DNA of 64,000 nucleotides, from NCBI GenBank assembly GCA_965218095.1, contig OZ244587.1, forward strand, positions 1,984,001 to 2,048,000. Reading direction: 5' to 3'. Positions 39,330 to 52,128 of this stretch are shown piece after piece (positions within the stretch are counted from its first letter, which is position 1; each line of letters opens with the position of its first letter). Both the position numbers and the translations under genes were made by a program. The stretch comes from Candidatus Poribacteria bacterium. GTDB lineage: Bacteria; Poribacteria; WGA-4E; PCPOR2b. Below the pieces are notes generated by a model. It searched no databases and had not been told where the DNA came from. It saw only the letters and a list, made by a program, of their open reading frames with translations.

Positions 39330-40185
39330 GGTTCTGTTGACATTTCAAGGGAGCCATATAAGAGTGGAGACAAAGCTGAGAAATCCAAAATAACGGACAG
39401 CTAGCTTCTCAAACCGAGAGAAGATACGACGATACCATTTTATCTTGTTGATGAAACATTCAATCCGATGTCTCTCTTTGTAGATGCCTCTCTTTGTATA
39501 AGTGTTTGTCATACGTTCTTTGGTCAACACGATGACTTTTGGGCGGTATCACCGCAATCGCTCCATTCGCCTCAATAACCGCGATAAAAGCGTCTGAATC
39601 GTACCCCTTGTCTCCAATCACATATTCACTGTTATATCCGATTATCAACCCTTCCGCCTCAGTTATGTCATGTCTCTGACCGGGGGTCAGATGAATTCTT
39701 AGGGGATTGCCTAGTCCGTCAACTGTGATGTGAATTTTTGTGCTGAAACCGCCCCGAGACCGACCTAATGCTTGGTTTTCAGTGCCACCCTTTTTTTTAA
39801 GGCGCCAGCTTTTTAAGGCGCCCGCCGCAGACGGGTGAGCGCGGCAGATGGTACTGTCCACAATAAGCGACTTGATATCGGGGTCAGAGGCGAAGTGGGG
39901 GTGCATCTGTGTGAAGATACCTTTGTCGCACCATCGAGCAAACCGCTTGTAGCGGGTGTTCCATTTGCCATAGGTGTCTGGTAGAAGTCTCCATTGAGCC
40001 CCACTACGAGTCACCCACAGGACGGCTTCGACGAAGCGGCGTGTAGCAGCTTAGCAGCTTCGTCGCCAAGATGGTGGGACAGCTTAGAAGAAACCGGTAT
40101 ATCTTATTCCATTGTTCATCAGGTAAGGTTATTGGCGTCATTCTTCTATTATGCCACAACCTTATACTCAAATGTCAACAGAACC
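39330..40185 (-). mobile_element. IS5 family (IS427-like) copy B1, degenerate
   Basis: TIR GGTTCTGTTGACATTT, TA duplication; motifs VDST..RAH, GRSRGG..TKIH, GDKGYD, YKERH. Confidence 0.93.
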
Positions 40186-43274: not shown

Positions 43275-43759
43275 GGAGCCGAGTGGCTCTACCTTCACCA
43301 TCCACACGAATGCTGCGCCAGCCATCCGTTGGCGGCAAAAAAACGCAAAAAGCGCGGTGGGAAACCTTCCTGCCAGGCTTTTTTGTACCCATTTTCCGTC
43401 AATCCTACAACTTTTTCAGTTATTAGAAGGGGAAATCAGGTATATCCCGCCTCCAACCATTCCTGTCAGATTGCCAATCCTGACCGAGTTAAGTGAAAAA
43501 CTCGTATCAATCCCCCTAATCGGGGCAGATGTTCCGCTCCCCACAAGAATATTTCCAGATTCAGGTCACCGTGGATGACAAATGAGGTGCTTGATCTCAA
43601 CAACGTTCGAGCGTATCCCGCGCGTGATTTCGATACGGGTTTCGATACACTTCGCTGCTCAACCCAAGTCGCTACTCAATTCAGTGCTCGTTCCGGTCAG
43701 TCATGAACGTTTACACGAAGGTTTTACTTTACATGCAACGAATGAAAAGAGAGAAACCC

Positions 43760-44254
43760 ATGAAACGATTGAACAAAGAAGTTGTCTTTTCCATTGTCTG
43801 GACCATTTTGTGGTTCCTTCACCCTCTATTACTCGTTCAGGGACTCGCTGCTGAACCTGAGCGGATTACCGTAGTAAACCTCAAACGCTTATTAGATGCC
43901 GGAGATGACGTGGTTCTGGTTGATGTTCGCAGTCAGCGCCAATACAATGCCGGACACCTCCCCGGAGCCATCTCGATGCCGTTTCCAGGTCAGATTCAAG
44001 CCAGACATCAAGAACTTCCCCCGGAGGGGCTGATTATTTTATACTGAAGCTGACAGGCGGAAGCCACAAGTGCCCGTGCGGCACGCATGTTAATGGAGGA
44101 ATTTGGTTTTCCCCCGGAGCGACTGAAAATGCTCAGAGGAGGTTTTCCCGCATGGAAGCAGGCGGGCCATCCGATTGAAAGTGCGGCGGCAGTTCACCCG
44201 AAAGGAAAACGCTTCACCCTGTGGGGTCGGATCAAATCTGGAAGTCGAATGTGA
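43760..44254 (+). CDS. exported rhodanese-domain selenoprotein with U-x-U active site
   Basis: Signal peptide; VDVRS..QY.AGHLPGA; IILY-U(44045)-S-U(44051)-QAEATSARAA; L.GGF.AW..AG.P; C-terminal AVHPKGKRFTLWGRIK; SECIS-like hairpin. Confidence 0.85.
44070..44084 (+). promoter_or_regulatory. SECIS upper stem-loop
   Basis: GTGCC-CGTGC-GGCAC; 16-nt spacer after the second UGA, the same geometry as 2871-2885. Confidence 0.7.
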
Positions 44255-44326
44255 CGGAATTTTGGGGATTCCACGATTCATTTCATTTTTGATAGCCGCA
44301 AAAGTGAGAAACTAGAACACCTAATT

Positions 44327-45435
44327 GAGGGGTGTGCATAGTAGTTCATTGGAAAACAGCCGCCATATGAGAGATATTGCGAGCAGGTAACTTCCATATG
44401 GCATTGGCAATCATAGCCACTTGCACTGATAACACCCCGATAGCTAAACAACAGCGTACATTGAAAAACCCCTTGACCGGTAACTGCTTCTGTTGAGGAG
44501 TGGTGCCTATCACTTTAGCAATCAAGTCAAACAACGGTTCAACCGAACTGCGACGTTTGCTTAAACAGAGACGCTGCTTGGGTTGGTTGATAAATCGATG
44601 ATACGCCTTGGCAAACCGTCCCTTTGTCCATCTAAGTGCCGGGGTAATCAAAGCGACTTGTGCCTTCGCCCAACAACGGATACGGTCTGCTTGGGTATAG
44701 GCATCATCGGCAGTGAGTGTCTGCGGTGAAAGTTGTGTCAGAATCTCAGACGCTTTAGCATCTATCGCCCAACTTTCGGAGACCGACGCACGGTGCACAG
44801 TTATCAGTGTTGGGAACGCACCTTGTGTGCAGATAATGTGAAGTCCGTAGCCATAGACCCAGCCATGATAACCACTCTTGCTCCACGTGGCATCGGTGTC
44901 GAGGTTGCGTAGATGTTTAGGTACTTTTCCTGCTTTGCGGTCAGTTTGATGCCAGACGGGTCCTCGTGCCTTAAATAAACTTTTGTCGGCTACCAGATGA
45001 GCCAAGTTGAATTGTTGGGACAAGTCAGTGGCATACTGACCGATAAACAATACAAATGCCTCTATCACTTCATATAATGCCTTATAGCGACGTGCAATCG
45101 TGGTTCGATGAGGGGGCTGTTGCCACCCCAGCATTTGTAACACTTCTGGGTGATTGATTAGCCACCGCCATTGCGTTTTGAAGCCATAGATGCCGTGAAA
45201 CTGCATCAACATGAAGAAAATGATAAACGAGGTGGTTGAATATGTCAATGGTTTTGCGTGTGTGACACCTGGTTTGTCAATACGGTGTTGCATAAACTGC
45301 TCAAAGAGTTGCATAATAAGAGTGACATAATCAGCCAACATTGGTCTTTGTACCATATTGGGGCTCCTTTTGCTATGATAACAATAGGAAACCCTTTTGG
45401 CTTGATTATGTCAACTATATTTATGCACACCCCTC
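44327..45435 (-). mobile_element. IS element copy A2
   Basis: Same TIRs as A1; 8-bp TSD ACCTAATT at 44319-44326 and 45436-45443. Confidence 0.95.
44346..45356 (-). CDS. DDE transposase
   Basis: 336 aa; 3 aa differences seen versus 1208..2218. Confidence 0.9.
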   Translation of the reverse strand: MVQRPMLADYVTLIMQLFEQFMQHRIDKPGVTHAKPLTYSTTSFIIFFMLMQFHGIYGFKTQWRWLINHPEVLQMLGWQQPPHRTTIARRYKALYEVIEAFVLFIGQYATDLSQQFNLAHLVADKSLFKARGPVWHQTDRKAGKVPKHLRNLDTDATWSKSGYHGWVYGYGLHIICTQGAFPTLITVHRASVSESWAIDAKASEILTQLSPQTLTADDAYTQADRIRCWAKAQVALITPALRWTKGRFAKAYHRFINQPKQRLCLSKRRSSVEPLFDLIAKVIGTTPQQKQLPVKGFFNVRCCLAIGVLSVQVAMIANAIWKLPARNISHMAAVFQ

Positions 45436-47428: not shown

Positions 47429-49366
47429 TCAGATAAAGATCTTATAGGTTTGAATACCGAAGGTCATCCCGATGATTGTCCAGAGGCTGCCAATCACATA
47501 GTCACCGAGTATCAGTCCTAAAAACAGGGGAGTCACCCGCCGGTGCACCCGGAGCCCGCCGTACCGCAGAATCAAATACTTGAGCAGCCAAGTCACGAGG
47601 CAGACAGACCAAAAATAATCCATCGCATAGCTCGTCGCCAGCGCGTATCCAGCAGGGTGGAAGGGCCACCACAGGAAGCGCATCCGCATAAACATGATGA
47701 AGAAACTCACAACCGCGCCGCCTATCATGTAAGAAGTTCCAGCCCAGTCTGAATCCCATGGATTGAGTAACCAGCCTCGCAGCAGTCCAAAAGACCGCCA
47801 GCCCATCCAATATTGCGTCCTCCTCGCCTGAGTGACGACGCCATCCCGAAAAGTCATGTCCAAGTTTGCCCAAAACGCAGCTAAAATTCCCACAACAGCG
47901 GCAATCAGCATAGCGACCAGGAAACCGCGATAGTTCATTCCGGTCACGTTGGCCATTTTGAACGCCTCAATCTGGTTTGGCATCGGGTGACTCCGATAGC
48001 CTCGATTGAACCAGGCGAACAACGCAATAATCGTTAAGCTCGCCGGATCGAACCGCCGCGTCCCACCTACTGTTGTCATGATGAGTTGAGGGCTGACGAA
48101 AAGGATCTCATGGGGCGTGCCGACCTCTACTCGAACACGGGTAATCGCAACGGCAAGTATGAAATAAAGCCCGAAGAAGCACCCCGCGACCCAGACCGCC
48201 ATCCCAGCGGCAGATGCGAACACCCCAAGACAGATTATCGACCCGAGAATACCCAGCGCTGCCCATCGATAAGGCATCGGTTCGTCGGAATCGTCCAGCG
48301 TTGACTCAAGTCCAACAATCTTTTCACCGACTTCCATCAGATGGCGACGCGTCATCCATACCGCCGTGCAGAAAATTGCAATCCACGCGCCATAAGACTG
48401 CTCGTTGAGCTGAGGGAAGTGCCATGCGCCCGTTGCGGCACCAATGACCCGTTCGACCATACGGATAGCGAAGAAGAACCAGCATGAGAGCAAGAGTTCG
48501 ATCGGGAGGAAGAATACCAATCCAATCACGAATGGATACAGATAGACCCGTATCCAGGCTATCACTGTCCACGGGCGTTCTGAGAAGATGCTGGGCCAGA
48601 TCGGCGTCGCCTTGATGTACGGAATTTCGGGAAAGAGTGGATAGAGAAAGTGGATACCATTAATCAAACCGATAGTTGTGGCAATACCGAACCCTATCCA
48701 CATCATTCGATTCTTCAGGAACTTGGCACCGCTATTTTCAGAGAGCCCAAGCCGCAACTGAATCACCGGATAGGCCAGCTTCTCTTCCTCCGCCCATCGT
48801 TTCCGGACGATTGTGTTGATACAGAACATCATGAACATCAACACGAGAAAGAACAATCCCCAGAATGCGAGTGGTTTTGCCCAGATGTAGAAGTGGTATA
48901 GGGTATAAAAGGTCGACTCCCCTTTGTAGAAATCTCGGAAATTTTTTTTATCGGATACCATCAGCCAATCTGGAAGGTAACGGAAAAACAGATCTTCCCA
49001 CTCATTCTCTATCGTTGCAAACCAGAAAGGGTGACCAATGCTTCCGAACAGATTTTGCATAGAGTCCCACCCGGCTACGGTGGAGGAAACCGCCGTCATC
49101 ATGTATATAATCAGGAGTTCCACCTGCGTCAAAACAACGTTTGGGCCGAGACGCTTCAATACTCGATTGAGCAGGACAAGGGCGAAAAGGGGAAGAGATG
49201 AGCCATCAAGGGAATTGTACTTGACCTCGACGATTGTCAGCCAGTAAACATTGACAGGAATCAACAAGGTCCCGATAAGTAGGGCTCTCCATGTGACTTG
49301 AGTTGGAGAATGTTGACTTTCAGATATCTGCGCCAATTCGACGATCCCCTTTGTAGAAATTTCCAC
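47429..49366 (-). CDS. DUF6785/DUF6784-like polytopic membrane protein (putative transporter)
   Basis: ENEW, W.EEEKL.YP, RF.WWPFHPAG, ILRYGG, P.FLGLILG. Confidence 0.8.
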   Translation of the reverse strand: MEISTKGIVELAQISESQHSPTQVTWRALLIGTLLIPVNVYWLTIVEVKYNSLDGSSLPLFALVLLNRVLKRLGPNVVLTQVELLIIYMMTAVSSTVAGWDSMQNLFGSIGHPFWFATIENEWEDLFFRYLPDWLMVSDKKNFRDFYKGESTFYTLYHFYIWAKPLAFWGLFFLVLMFMMFCINTIVRKRWAEEEKLAYPVIQLRLGLSENSGAKFLKNRMMWIGFGIATTIGLINGIHFLYPLFPEIPYIKATPIWPSIFSERPWTVIAWIRVYLYPFVIGLVFFLPIELLLSCWFFFAIRMVERVIGAATGAWHFPQLNEQSYGAWIAIFCTAVWMTRRHLMEVGEKIVGLESTLDDSDEPMPYRWAALGILGSIICLGVFASAAGMAVWVAGCFFGLYFILAVAITRVRVEVGTPHEILFVSPQLIMTTVGGTRRFDPASLTIIALFAWFNRGYRSHPMPNQIEAFKMANVTGMNYRGFLVAMLIAAVVGILAAFWANLDMTFRDGVVTQARRTQYWMGWRSFGLLRGWLLNPWDSDWAGTSYMIGGAVVSFFIMFMRMRFLWWPFHPAGYALATSYAMDYFWSVCLVTWLLKYLILRYGGLRVHRRVTPLFLGLILGDYVIGSLWTIIGMTFGIQTYKIFI

Positions 49367-49486: not shown

Positions 49487-52128
49487 TCACCACATAATCC
49501 GATATCCAGGTTTTCCCGCCAAAAAATCAACTATCAGCCATAGCCCACCTGTGAGAAATTCACCCAATACCAAGCCGAGGAAGAATGGTCCGCATCGCCG
49601 GTATAGCCCAATCCCAGCGAACCGCAAGACAACCCACTTGCAGAGCCACCCGATTAACACCGAACACCACATCAGAATCATGGGCCAACTTGGGACCATC
49701 ACAAACCCGATTGGATGCAATGCCCACCAGAGAAAGCGGGTGCGCAAGGCTGCCAGCGAAACGGTGACAATCGCACCGATGCCCATCATCAAGATATTAT
49801 ACTGGTTGGGGTCTTGGGGGTCGAGAAGCATTGACATGAAGCGGCGGAAAGCCCGGTGTGGGGCACCGAAGAAGAACCAACCACCAAGATTTGTCCCACC
49901 ATAGCGATAGATGATGTAGAGCACCACGATCGATGACAGCACCATTGAGAGCACGACGCACACCCCAACGGGAATCAAGAAGTACCGTTGACTTAGGCGC
50001 TTATTATCTACCAATTTGAACGCATCCATCACGCTCGGCATCATTGATGAACGCACGTCGAACATAAAGACCATCTCCTGATACGCAAGGATTGTGAGAC
50101 TTGCGGCACCTAGCGGGCGTGTGCCGGTAAACGGCCTGATGAGATCGGTGGGACGGAACGTCGATTGAATGAATAGCATGCCCCCTTCATAGACCAATCG
50201 CGTCATCACAATCATAATGATCAGAAACAGGCAGATTACGGTGAGGCTGACGATAAAGGATACGCCAGCAATCACGCTCCACGCAGTCATGATACCGATG
50301 CCGATCAGCAGACCAAGCCATGCTGCTCGTGGCGACATTGGCTCATTTGTTGTTGCGGTTGGCGATATAGCGGCGGTATCCGATGGGCTCGAGGCTTGCC
50401 CCCCGGCTGGCTGGAACGCGAGGCGGATCATGTCCGTGAGATGACGCCTTGCTCGCCAAAGGATGACGAGGGCGAAGAACAGAAACCCACCAGCCATTTG
50501 ATAAGCCGCAAACTCGTGGGTGACATAGATCCGTTGCCCCAATGGCAAACCGAATTGCGTCATTACGACCGCTTCCGCATGATACAACAGATAGAAGAAC
50601 CAGAGGCTAAAGGCAAGATCTGTTGGCAGTAGGTAGACAAAGCCAATCGCGCTGAAGTAGATAATCGCCGGGAGCGGACGAACGACGTGCCACGGCTTCT
50701 CCGTGAGATACTGCGAGAGACCATGGGACAGCGAGATTCGGGGAAAGATTGGGAAGTGGAAGTGAAGCCCGTTCCAGCTATGAATAAGGGCCGGCAAAGC
50801 GATGCCAATCCATACCGCGCGCGATCGAAAAAATGCCGGAATCACACGGTTTTGGTTTTCTGCGCCAAGCATTTCGATTGGCAACTGGACAAGCGGGAAA
50901 CCGAGTTGTTCACGTTCGATCCATTGGCGGCGGAGCAGGACACATACGCAGGTCATAGCAAGAAATAGCCCAAGTGCAAAAACACTCCATGCCGCTATTG
51001 GTTTTATCCAAAACTCCCAAGGTACCCAGAAGGTTTGGGATGGCGTGCCTTCAAAAAAAAGCCGTGCTGCCTTCGCGTCCATTGGTGCAAACCAGTCCGG
51101 GATATGATGAAAAAAGGTGGTGCTCCACTCATTTTCGGGGGACTGATAGTAGGTGGGCGCGACGATAATTGGAATGAGGTAGGCGGCAAAACCCAGCGAC
51201 GAAATGCCTGCACTTACCAGCGTCATCGCGTAGATAGTGACCAACTCAGCCTAGCTGAGGGGCACCCCGATGCGGTGCAGGAGCGGGTTTACTACTAGGT
51301 TCTGTTGACATTTCAAGGGAGCCATATAAGAGTGGAGACAAAGCTGAGAAATCCAAAATAACGGACAGCTAGTTTCTCAAACCGAGAGAAGATACGACGA
51401 TACCATTTTATCTTGTTGATGAAACATTCAACCCGATGTCTCTCTTTGTATAAGTGTTTGTCATACGTTCTTTGGCCAACACGATGACTTTTTGGCGGTA
51501 TCACCGCAATCGCTCCCTTCGCCTCAATAACGGCGATAAAAGCGTCCGAATCGTACCCCTTGTCTCCAATCACATATTCACTGTTATATCCGATTATCAA
51601 CCCTTCCGCCCCAGTTATGTCATGTCTCTGACCGGGGGTCAGATGAATTCTTAGGGGATTGCCTAGTCCGTCAACTGTGATGTGATTTTTTGTACTGAAA
51701 CCGCCCCGAGACCGACCTAATGCTTGGTTTTCAGTGCCACCCTTTTTTTTAAGGCGCCAGCTTTTTAAGGCGCCCGCCGCACACGGGTGAGCGCGGCAGA
51801 TGGTACTGTCCACAATAAGCGACTCGATATCGGGGTCAGAGGCAAAGTGGTGGTGCATCTGTGTGAAGATACCTTTAAGAAGAAACCGGTATATCTTATT
51901 CCATTGTTCATCAGGTAAGGTTATTGGCGTCATTCTTCTATTATGCCACAACCTTATACTCAAATGTCAACAGAACCTAGTTGGAGAAATACGAAGACCA
52001 TCAGGACACCAACCGGCAGGTTGGCAGGAAGTGAGCCATGTACCTCGAATCCAGAAATCACCGATTGGCGTGACAATGGCAAGAATTATCGTTGCGAAAA
52101 GCCCTATAAATGTGCTACGTGTGGTCAT
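49487..52128 (-). pseudogene. DUF6785-like paralog interrupted by IS copy B2
   Basis: N-terminus MTTRSTFIG.. at 52128; frameshift near 52020; IS at 51298-51977; TAG 51251-51253; body ORF 49487..51244. Confidence 0.8.
51298..51977 (-). mobile_element. IS5 family copy B2 (internal deletion)
   Basis: TIRs GGTTCTGTTGACATTT, TA TSD; ORF 51313..51963. Confidence 0.93.

Follow-up and report, generated by a model that had tools for sequence, protein, structure and literature searches.

A small rhodanese gene of a Poribacteria genome with two UGA codons in its active-site loop, both probably read as selenocysteine

Is a rhodanese gene whose active-site loop is interrupted by TGA, and again by TGA two codons later, a broken gene, or are both codons read as selenocysteine (Sec, U)? 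The question is raised by positions 43760 to 44254 of a 64,000-nucleotide (nt) stretch of a Candidatus Poribacteria bacterium genome (assembly GCA_965218095.1, contig OZ244587.1, positions 1,984,001 to 2,048,000 of the forward strand). This stretch is called the window here, and it supplies all coordinates given without another handle. The mechanically called open reading frame (ORF) stops at TGA 44045; an earlier note had held that the frame continues past this codon to complete the C-terminal half of a rhodanese. Our reading, to which a probability of roughly 0.86 was assigned, is that the locus is one intact gene that would encode a small, exported, single-domain rhodanese with a Tyr-Sec-Ser-Sec loop, both UGA codons being read as Sec. 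Conservation of the UGA codons, exchange of Sec and Cys, purifying selection, a hairpin, and the Sec machinery were established by comparison of sequences. The features on which the argument depends are the following.

43760..44254, + strand: proposed coding sequence of the U-S-U rhodanese, 164 residues with TGA taken as U, plus the terminal TGA
43877..44164, + strand: rhodanese domain (residues 40-135; PF00581), spanning both TGAs
44045..44047, + strand: first UGA (putative Sec96), at the canonical position of the rhodanese catalytic Cys, directly after the beta-strand ...IILY
44051..44053, + strand: second UGA (putative Sec98), two residues further into the active-site loop, a position that is always Sec
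44070..44084, + strand: hairpin of the type of a selenocysteine insertion sequence (SECIS), with a 5-bp stem (GUGCC/GGCAC) and the apical loop CGUGC
44252..44254, + strand: terminal TGA stop, 66 codons beyond the UGAs, with no comparable hairpin behind it

Under translation table 11 the frame is split into two ORFs (43703..44047 and 44087..44254). The start was placed at ATG 43760 (MKRLNK...) rather than at ATG 43703, the upstream start of the mechanical ORF; it is kept as MK/MQ-RLN in the orthologs, and a purine-rich stretch lies 5-13 nt 5' of it. From this start the frame reads ...GLIILY-TGA(44045-44047)-AGC-TGA(44051-44053)-QAEATSARAARML...LRGGFPAWKQAGHP..., and the translation 3' of the second TGA runs QAEATSARAARMLMEEFGFPPERLKMLRGGFPAWKQAGHPIES...KGKRFTLWGRIKSGSRM up to the closing TGA at 44252-44254. 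The match to PF00581 spans both TGAs (score, 58.3 bits; cut-off, 22.2; E value, 1.1e-15; profile positions 4-102 of 102), placing the protein in that family, and a whole-genome scan with the Pfam Rhodanese profile flagged the locus as a match with "2 TGA" inside. Profile matches in the PDB were rhodaneses. A model was calculated with AlphaFold2 using 31 aligned relatives; its mean predicted local distance difference test score (pLDDT) was 87.5, and its best Foldseek matches were the rhodaneses 3tp9 and 3nhv, with root-mean-square deviations of 1.7-2.2 over 111-112 columns. A Cys directly after the strand (YC...) aligned with the first Sec in two of the three solved proteins printed (6mxv and 3nhv/3o3w). 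Because the read-through frame, the PF00581 match and the predicted fold agree, the continuation of the frame past TGA 44045 was accepted as it had been described. The public gene calls for this family are partial: those seen are 91-133 residues long, all shortened, and the closest 27 database proteins cover just 55-58% of the query. Ten of 14 fetched database proteins end at the Tyr that precedes the first TGA; one shortened ortholog bears the NCBI name "Candidatus Poribacteria bacterium".

Orthologs were collected by a six-frame search of 61 related genomes, which yielded 43 orthologs in 42 genomes with 43-70% identity over the whole length. At the first position, 36 of them have TGA, six have TGT, and one has TGC; at the second, all 43 have TGA. 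The seven Cys-first orthologs (Y-C-S/G-U) belong to one family of the order. TAA or TAG occurred at neither position in any of the 43. The terminal stop, by contrast, varies (TGA in 29 orthologs and TAA or TAG in 14, within two codons of the site), and one further ortholog (L048) extends 14 codons past that site to a TGA of its own. In other orders or classes of the phylum, three deeper orthologs were found, two U-S-U and one C-S-U; TGA occupies the first position in the former two and TGT in the latter, and all three have TGA at the second. Since the same arrangement is conserved in 43 orthologs and in 42 of 61 genomes, a chance origin was excluded.

The search was carried beyond the phylum by two scans. 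A pattern scan of metagenomes gave at least 118 matches in at least 117 loci; among the matches listed there were five rhodanese relatives, all C-S-U with TGA at the second position, and no further U-S-U form. A contig scan back-translated Sec as Cys, so only Cys-Cys forms were returned (five loci, four of them rhodaneses). Cys occupies both positions in the distant homologs P0029 (YCDCPAE) and P0030 (YCGCPLE) and, as YCSC(P/T)AEE, in four metagenome-assembled genomes (MAGs) of other phyla (L060-L063: Eisenbacteria, Spirochaetota, and two labeled uncultured bacterium). These Cys-Cys proteins have the loop and its invariant Glu in common with the window protein; they differ in lacking UGA and the frozen hairpin and are 34-42% identical to it, and three of the four MAG homologs bear a long, different C-terminal extension. 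Homologs such as YCSCPAEE align with the two TGAs at the YCxC positions, as had been claimed, and the residues found at both positions are Cys or Sec, never Trp or Arg. An in-frame UGA conserved in orthologs and matched by Cys in homologs is the pattern by which a selenoprotein is recognized, and it is present at both positions here.

The region 3' of the UGAs is under purifying selection. The ratio of nonsynonymous to synonymous substitution rates (dN/dS) there was 0.08-0.49 (computable for 15 of 16 pairs), similar to that of the N-terminal part (0.06-0.41; 13 computable pairs). Superimposed on this is a constraint at synonymous sites. Over the 11 codons that follow the second UGA, normalized codon entropy was 0.26, as against 0.65 elsewhere (Mann-Whitney p = 3e-5), and several codons of this stretch are frozen: AGC in 42/42, GAA in 43/43, AGT in 43/43, GCG in 43/43, and GCA in 41/41. 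A sliding window over the gene revealed no second synonymous stretch of low entropy.

The frozen stretch contains the hairpin. RNAalifold returned one helix in it, GUGYC/GRCAC at 44070-44074 and 44080-44084, with a stem that begins 22 nt after the first UGA and 16 nt after the second. In the loop, bases 2 and 4 are G and base 5 is C in all 43 orthologs (consensus N-G-K-G-C). Pairing statistics were calculated over the 33 distinct rows of the alignment, in which 100% of the stem cells are paired. Compensatory changes were found at two of the five pairs. The stem pair 35-43 is CG in 19 rows, UG in 12, and UA in two, the U-A form entailing a change from Ala to Thr; the stem pair 33-45 is U-A throughout the order and C-G in the distant C-x-U relatives L080, L115, L118, and L125. 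By published description (PMC1088965), a bacterial SECIS follows directly on the UGA as a stem-loop whose small apical loop contains G, and the 5-bp stem with its 5-nt N-G-K-G-C loop has this form. The SECIS-like hairpin that had been noticed behind the UGAs is therefore a conserved one, with compensatory changes.

All four components of the Sec machinery that the earlier note had named for checking were located in the genome. SelA (527 bits) and SelD (371 bits) are present, the latter with an in-frame TGA of its own (...TCGUAAK). The selB gene has 646 codons and a SelB winged-helix domain (75 bits), and it adjoins selC; the tRNA-Sec encoded there is 94 nt long, with an acceptor stem of 8 bp and an extra arm that is long. 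SelB is shared by 60 of the relatives, and the one of the 61 in which it was not found is an 80%-complete genome; the presence of SelB is necessary for the reading of Sec, yet it does not separate carriers of the rhodanese from non-carriers. The genome encodes a second rhodanese selenoprotein, a two-domain sulfurtransferase with the motif ...SYUQGGYRS. This gene and selD lie outside the window (G000:C1:4792814-4793149 (-) and 5447425-5448348 (-)) and have their own distinct hairpins, in which no obvious loop or stem motif in common with the hairpin at 44070-44084 was seen.

The two UGAs are very likely decoded through one shared SECIS. In the mechanism that we propose, SelB with Sec-tRNA(Sec) would bind the hairpin at 44070-44084 and deliver Sec while the first UGA is in the A site and the stem is 22 nt behind it. 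A second SelB complex would then serve the second UGA two codons on, with the stem 16 nt behind that codon; whichever UGA occupies the A site, the stem would be outside the ribosome. Translation would end at the UGA that follows 66 codons later and has no such hairpin.

The DNA was compared with reads from other runs. Contigs of three DNA runs from three studies span 43500-44334 with both TGAs unchanged; one of these runs may be the source sample. The RNA run X6 yielded a 331-nt contig identical to 43669-43999, in a library that possibly contains DNA; it ends before the TGAs, and no contig of the strain bridges them, so it is uninformative on read-through. Short high-depth contigs of other community members match 44042-44084 (the UGAs and the SECIS) and 44199-44254 (the C-terminal tail) at 90-95% identity, from which it appears that several related strains bearing the gene coexist in the samples. 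An A>G change at 44129 was seen in runs X2 and X4, and it is the only change in X4.

Several observations weigh against the reading of both UGAs as Sec in an intact, exported protein. Four of the five hairpin pairs are invariant within the order, the free energy of the hairpin (-7.8 kcal/mol) did not stand out from that of shuffled sequences (three cuts gave z = +0.43, +0.31, and -1.13), and an Rfam scan of 43700-44330 at E values up to 10 gave no match. As the thermodynamics were not significant, it is the ortholog comparison that supports the hairpin. A 75-nt cloverleaf tRNA with the anticodon UCA, which might read UGA, is encoded at G000:C1:4577829-4577903 (-) (equivalent to L065:1501-1575) in this genome alone. 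Run X2 (depth 20) has a one-base insertion, an extra C after 44131, that would throw the last third of that strain's protein out of frame and so counts against a gene intact in every strain. No conserved operon anchors the function, the neighbors differing between genera and families. Export was judged by eye, and the presence of selenium in the protein and translation past the UGAs are deduced from sequence.

What would such a protein do? Its predicted location bears on the answer, and two further features are needed here.

43760..43852, + strand: predicted signal peptide (residues 1-31), with a basic MKRLNK, a hydrophobic core, and the junction ...QGLA(A)/EPER
44183..44251, + strand: basic C-terminal tail (...AAVHPKGKRFTLWGRIKSGSRM), 23 residues, conserved, behind the rhodanese domain

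A hydrophobic, signal-like N-terminal segment and a short C-terminal tail had been described before, and both proved to be present and conserved in the orthologs. In the orthologs the N-terminus is again hydrophobic and leads into FA(A)-EPER or something similar; in the distant ortholog L080 a lipobox-like ...FGC stands in its place. In the AlphaFold2 model, residues 6-28 form a lone helix. The basic-hydrophobic N-terminus, the ...FA(A)/EPER junction, the lipobox-like variant, and the lone helix together suggest that the rhodanese is exported. In the tail, K148, W155, and K159 are almost invariant among the orthologs. The tail sequence KGKRFTLWGRIKS is unique in the genome, and its synonymous sites vary normally, so the constraint is on the protein; the confidence of the model is low there (pLDDT 53-62). 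The notion that the tail is a common sorting signal was rejected when a loose six-frame motif search of the genome returned this gene only. A metagenome contig (L151) carries two tandem C-S-U paralogs, with matches 514 nt apart, and a KLVTSWGRIKSK tail on one copy only.

In the loop, U-S-U-x-A-E, a Glu is invariant and no basic residue is conserved, which argues against a classical thiosulfate:cyanide sulfurtransferase site. We propose instead a periplasmic selenol pair that may serve in sulfur or selenium transfer or in redox chemistry. After export, Sec96, at the position of the canonical nucleophile, and Sec98 would act together; as a pair they could be carriers of sulfane sulfur or selenium, or could cycle through an intramolecular diselenide. 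The C-S-U lineages would form a selenenylsulfide instead.

The chief functional alternative leaves both Sec residues in place: the U-S-U-x-A-E loop could be a periplasmic site for soft metals or metalloids (Hg, Cu, As, Se) in a scavenger or chaperone. It was judged doubtful. The invariant Glu and the lack of a conserved basic residue suit such a site, as do weak NCBIfam matches to ExtH, a rhodanese of selenite/tellurite operons, and to ChrE. It is also favored by a long open frame resembling MerA and Lpd, found directly behind the rhodanese stop in 10 loci of one related genus (L077:4925-6430 (+) and its equivalents in L021, L027-L030, and L032-L036). Pfam confirmed a class-I flavoprotein disulfide reductase in three of these 10 and in one more distant locus, where it lies 300 nt further on. 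The flavoprotein has about 500 residues and the redox motif GGDCLWTGC, and in one locus that was read its ATG is 12 nt behind the stop, in the same frame. However, it scored below the cut-offs for MerA (393.9 against 454) and Lpd, and the C-terminal Cys pair that MerA has was not seen in it. Neither the window nor the other families have the reductase gene, and no metal transporter or regulator was found among the neighbors.

Less likely still is a joint reading of RNA and protein, in which the recoding signal has two parts and the product is a periplasmic diselenide redox or metal-binding center, not a sulfurtransferase. It involves one more feature.

44056..44065, + strand: tentative helix 1, the 3-bp mini-hairpin GGC-GGAA-GCC, between the UGAs and the main hairpin

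The constant hairpin at 44070-44084 may serve the codon that is always Sec, and helix 1, with its GNAA cap, may have arisen with the upstream UGA. While the first UGA is being read, helix 1 may lie at the mRNA entrance of the ribosome and might, by slowing or positioning the latter, allow one SelB site to be used twice within two codons. The acidic U-S-U-x-A-E loop may provide the diselenide or metal center. The helix 1 pair 18-27 joins two third codon positions and, over the same 33 rows, is GC in 18, CG in five, GU in two, UG in two, AU in one, UA in one, and something else in four. The helix is absent in six of the seven Cys-first forms in those rows and in all five metagenome C-S-U relatives. 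Because it is also absent in a U-S-U ortholog (L079), and because an alternative pairing is possible where the Ala codon is GCU, helix 1 was graded as tentative; as a requirement for the first UGA it is weakened by L079.

That the UGAs are read by something other than the Sec machinery, either the tRNA(UCA) mentioned above or near-cognate tRNAs, was considered improbable. The tRNA(UCA) gene is labeled "tRNA-SeC(tca)" by aragorn; it is really the ortholog of tRNA-Arg(UCG), which is 85-95% identical in 58 relatives. The anticodon is TCG in all seven relatives examined, several of whose genomes nevertheless keep the U-S-U gene. Two more bases differ in the UCA form, on the 3' side of its anticodon arm (loop and stem), so that the stem has an A-C mismatch; the gene may be decaying, it may reflect an assembly error, or the tRNA may be a weak reader of UGA. 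Arg or Trp is never found at the two positions in homologs. TGA is the commonest stop of the genome (1048 of 2613 open frames of at least 300 codons close with it), and so it has not been reassigned genome-wide. Decoding of this kind would also leave the conserved hairpin unexplained.

More improbable by a little is that the UGAs are plain stops and that the gene is dead or yields a 95-residue N-terminal fragment. In favor of this account, all public gene calls end at the first TGA, the distal part is frameshifted in strain X2, and in the window the gene is followed after 70 nt by an insertion sequence. Against it, the distal 66 codons are maintained across genera, families, and classes with the low dN/dS given above, TAA and TAG have replaced neither TGA in 43 orthologs, and the distal part completes the rhodanese fold. 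The least credible account, a gene split into two polypeptides of which the second starts at ATG 44087 (Met110) of the in-frame ORF 44087..44254, fails because Met is found at that codon in only 22 of 43 orthologs, and conservation within the protein is highest between the second UGA and this ATG (AEATSARAA).

The reading of one intact gene with two Sec codons was then set beside systems already in print. A UxU rhodanese "wherein a second Sec evolved" was reported in 2007 from the metagenome of Olavius algarvensis symbionts (Zhang and Gladyshev; PMC1976440). Going by the description in that paper, the two have in common a second Sec in a rhodanese-family protein, the U-x-U motif, and two UGAs 6 nt apart; by the title and tables of the paper, the Olavius protein comes from a different phylum. 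The defining features of that type, namely two Sec residues as U-x-U within a rhodanese domain, are all found in the window protein. What differs is that U-S-U is fixed across a clade here (36 of 43 orthologs and two of three deeper ones) and is accompanied by a predicted signal peptide and a basic tail. A 2026 review (PMC13188914) notes a small subset with two or three Sec residues among 119 prokaryotic selenoprotein families or subfamilies. A C-x-U rhodanese selenoprotein has also been catalogued, as "form 3" in the review and as "COG0607 form 2" in PMC9312934. Two UGAs that apparently share one SECIS are unusual for bacteria, as the earlier note had remarked, but in view of PMC1976440 and PMC13188914 a protein with two Sec residues of this kind is not new. 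In a full-text literature search, PMC1976440 alone combined UxU, selenocysteine, and rhodanese, and in the papers found on Poribacteria and selenocysteine the gene appeared in no title or abstract.

Among the NCBIfam families, NF041203 ("rhodanese_LYCAU"; C-x-U, rhodanese-related (seleno)protein) was the best for all 31 aligned members. A single rhodanese domain and Sec at the +2 position are common to both, and one family of the relatives is exactly C-S-U. The window protein scored 69.9 bits against the cut-off of 115, and the best E value among the 31 members was 6.8e-23. In place of the motif L-Y-C-A-U it has L-Y-U-S-U, with Sec for Cys and the +2 Sec retained, and its 164 residues exceed the 126-position profile because of the extra C-terminal tail. 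GlpE and PspE, the second of which is periplasmic, are likewise small single rhodanese domains. The window protein fell far below both equivalog cut-offs (21.3 against 102 for GlpE and 16.5 against 102 for PspE). They have one catalytic Cys in a loop of another kind; the loop here is acidic and two residues longer when aligned on the helix that follows.

The surroundings of the gene in the window were also described.

44346..45356, - strand: DDE transposase ORF of an insertion sequence (element within 44322-45400)
47429..49366 and 49487..51244, - strand: pair of paralogs of the DUF6785 and DUF6784 families, in adjacent genes

The rhodanese gene is preceded by genes for a 3-hydroxyacyl-CoA dehydrogenase and a glyoxalase-family protein. 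On its 3' side, the insertion sequence begins about 70 nt past the stop and is followed by an aquaporin-family gene and the two DUF6785/DUF6784 genes. At about 44325 the read depth rises from about 5-20 to 280-1040 (20- to 100-fold) and the contigs of all runs break, which marks the insertion sequence as multi-copy. It occupies the place of the flavoprotein reductase gene or of DUF6785/6784 in relatives; further DDE transposase ORFs were noted at 39460..40014 and 51313..51963. Neighbors across the relatives include GH88, a metallo-beta-lactamase-fold protein, DUF6785/6784, HEAT-repeat proteins, and the flavoprotein reductase. Some of the relatives' loci have the metallo-beta-lactamase-fold gene upstream and DUF6785/6784 downstream; in several related loci the latter family lies directly downstream of the rhodanese, in convergent orientation. 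A third family has HEAT-repeat genes.

The gene was found (E value of at most 1e-20) in 41 of 151 sampled genomes of the phylum. Three families carry it in every member sampled, and the window's own family in most; it occurs in none of 100 genomes of the largest family, although SelB is present there.

The U-S-U rhodanese is a rare type and not a new one, and knowledge of selenoprotein biology as a class is unchanged by it. What is added is a mapped, covariation-supported candidate SECIS common to two UGAs, together with a natural toggle between Sec and Cys at the first position. Because the public calls shorten the protein, counts of the Poribacteria selenoproteome and annotation pipelines miss it. 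Two Sec codons spaced 6 nt apart, apparently dependent on a single very small SECIS, occur naturally in this family, and since sister lineages have either Sec or Cys at the first position, both forms can be compared directly. The family would therefore be a compact system for the re-use of SelB within two codons and for what is gained from a second selenium in a catalytic pair.

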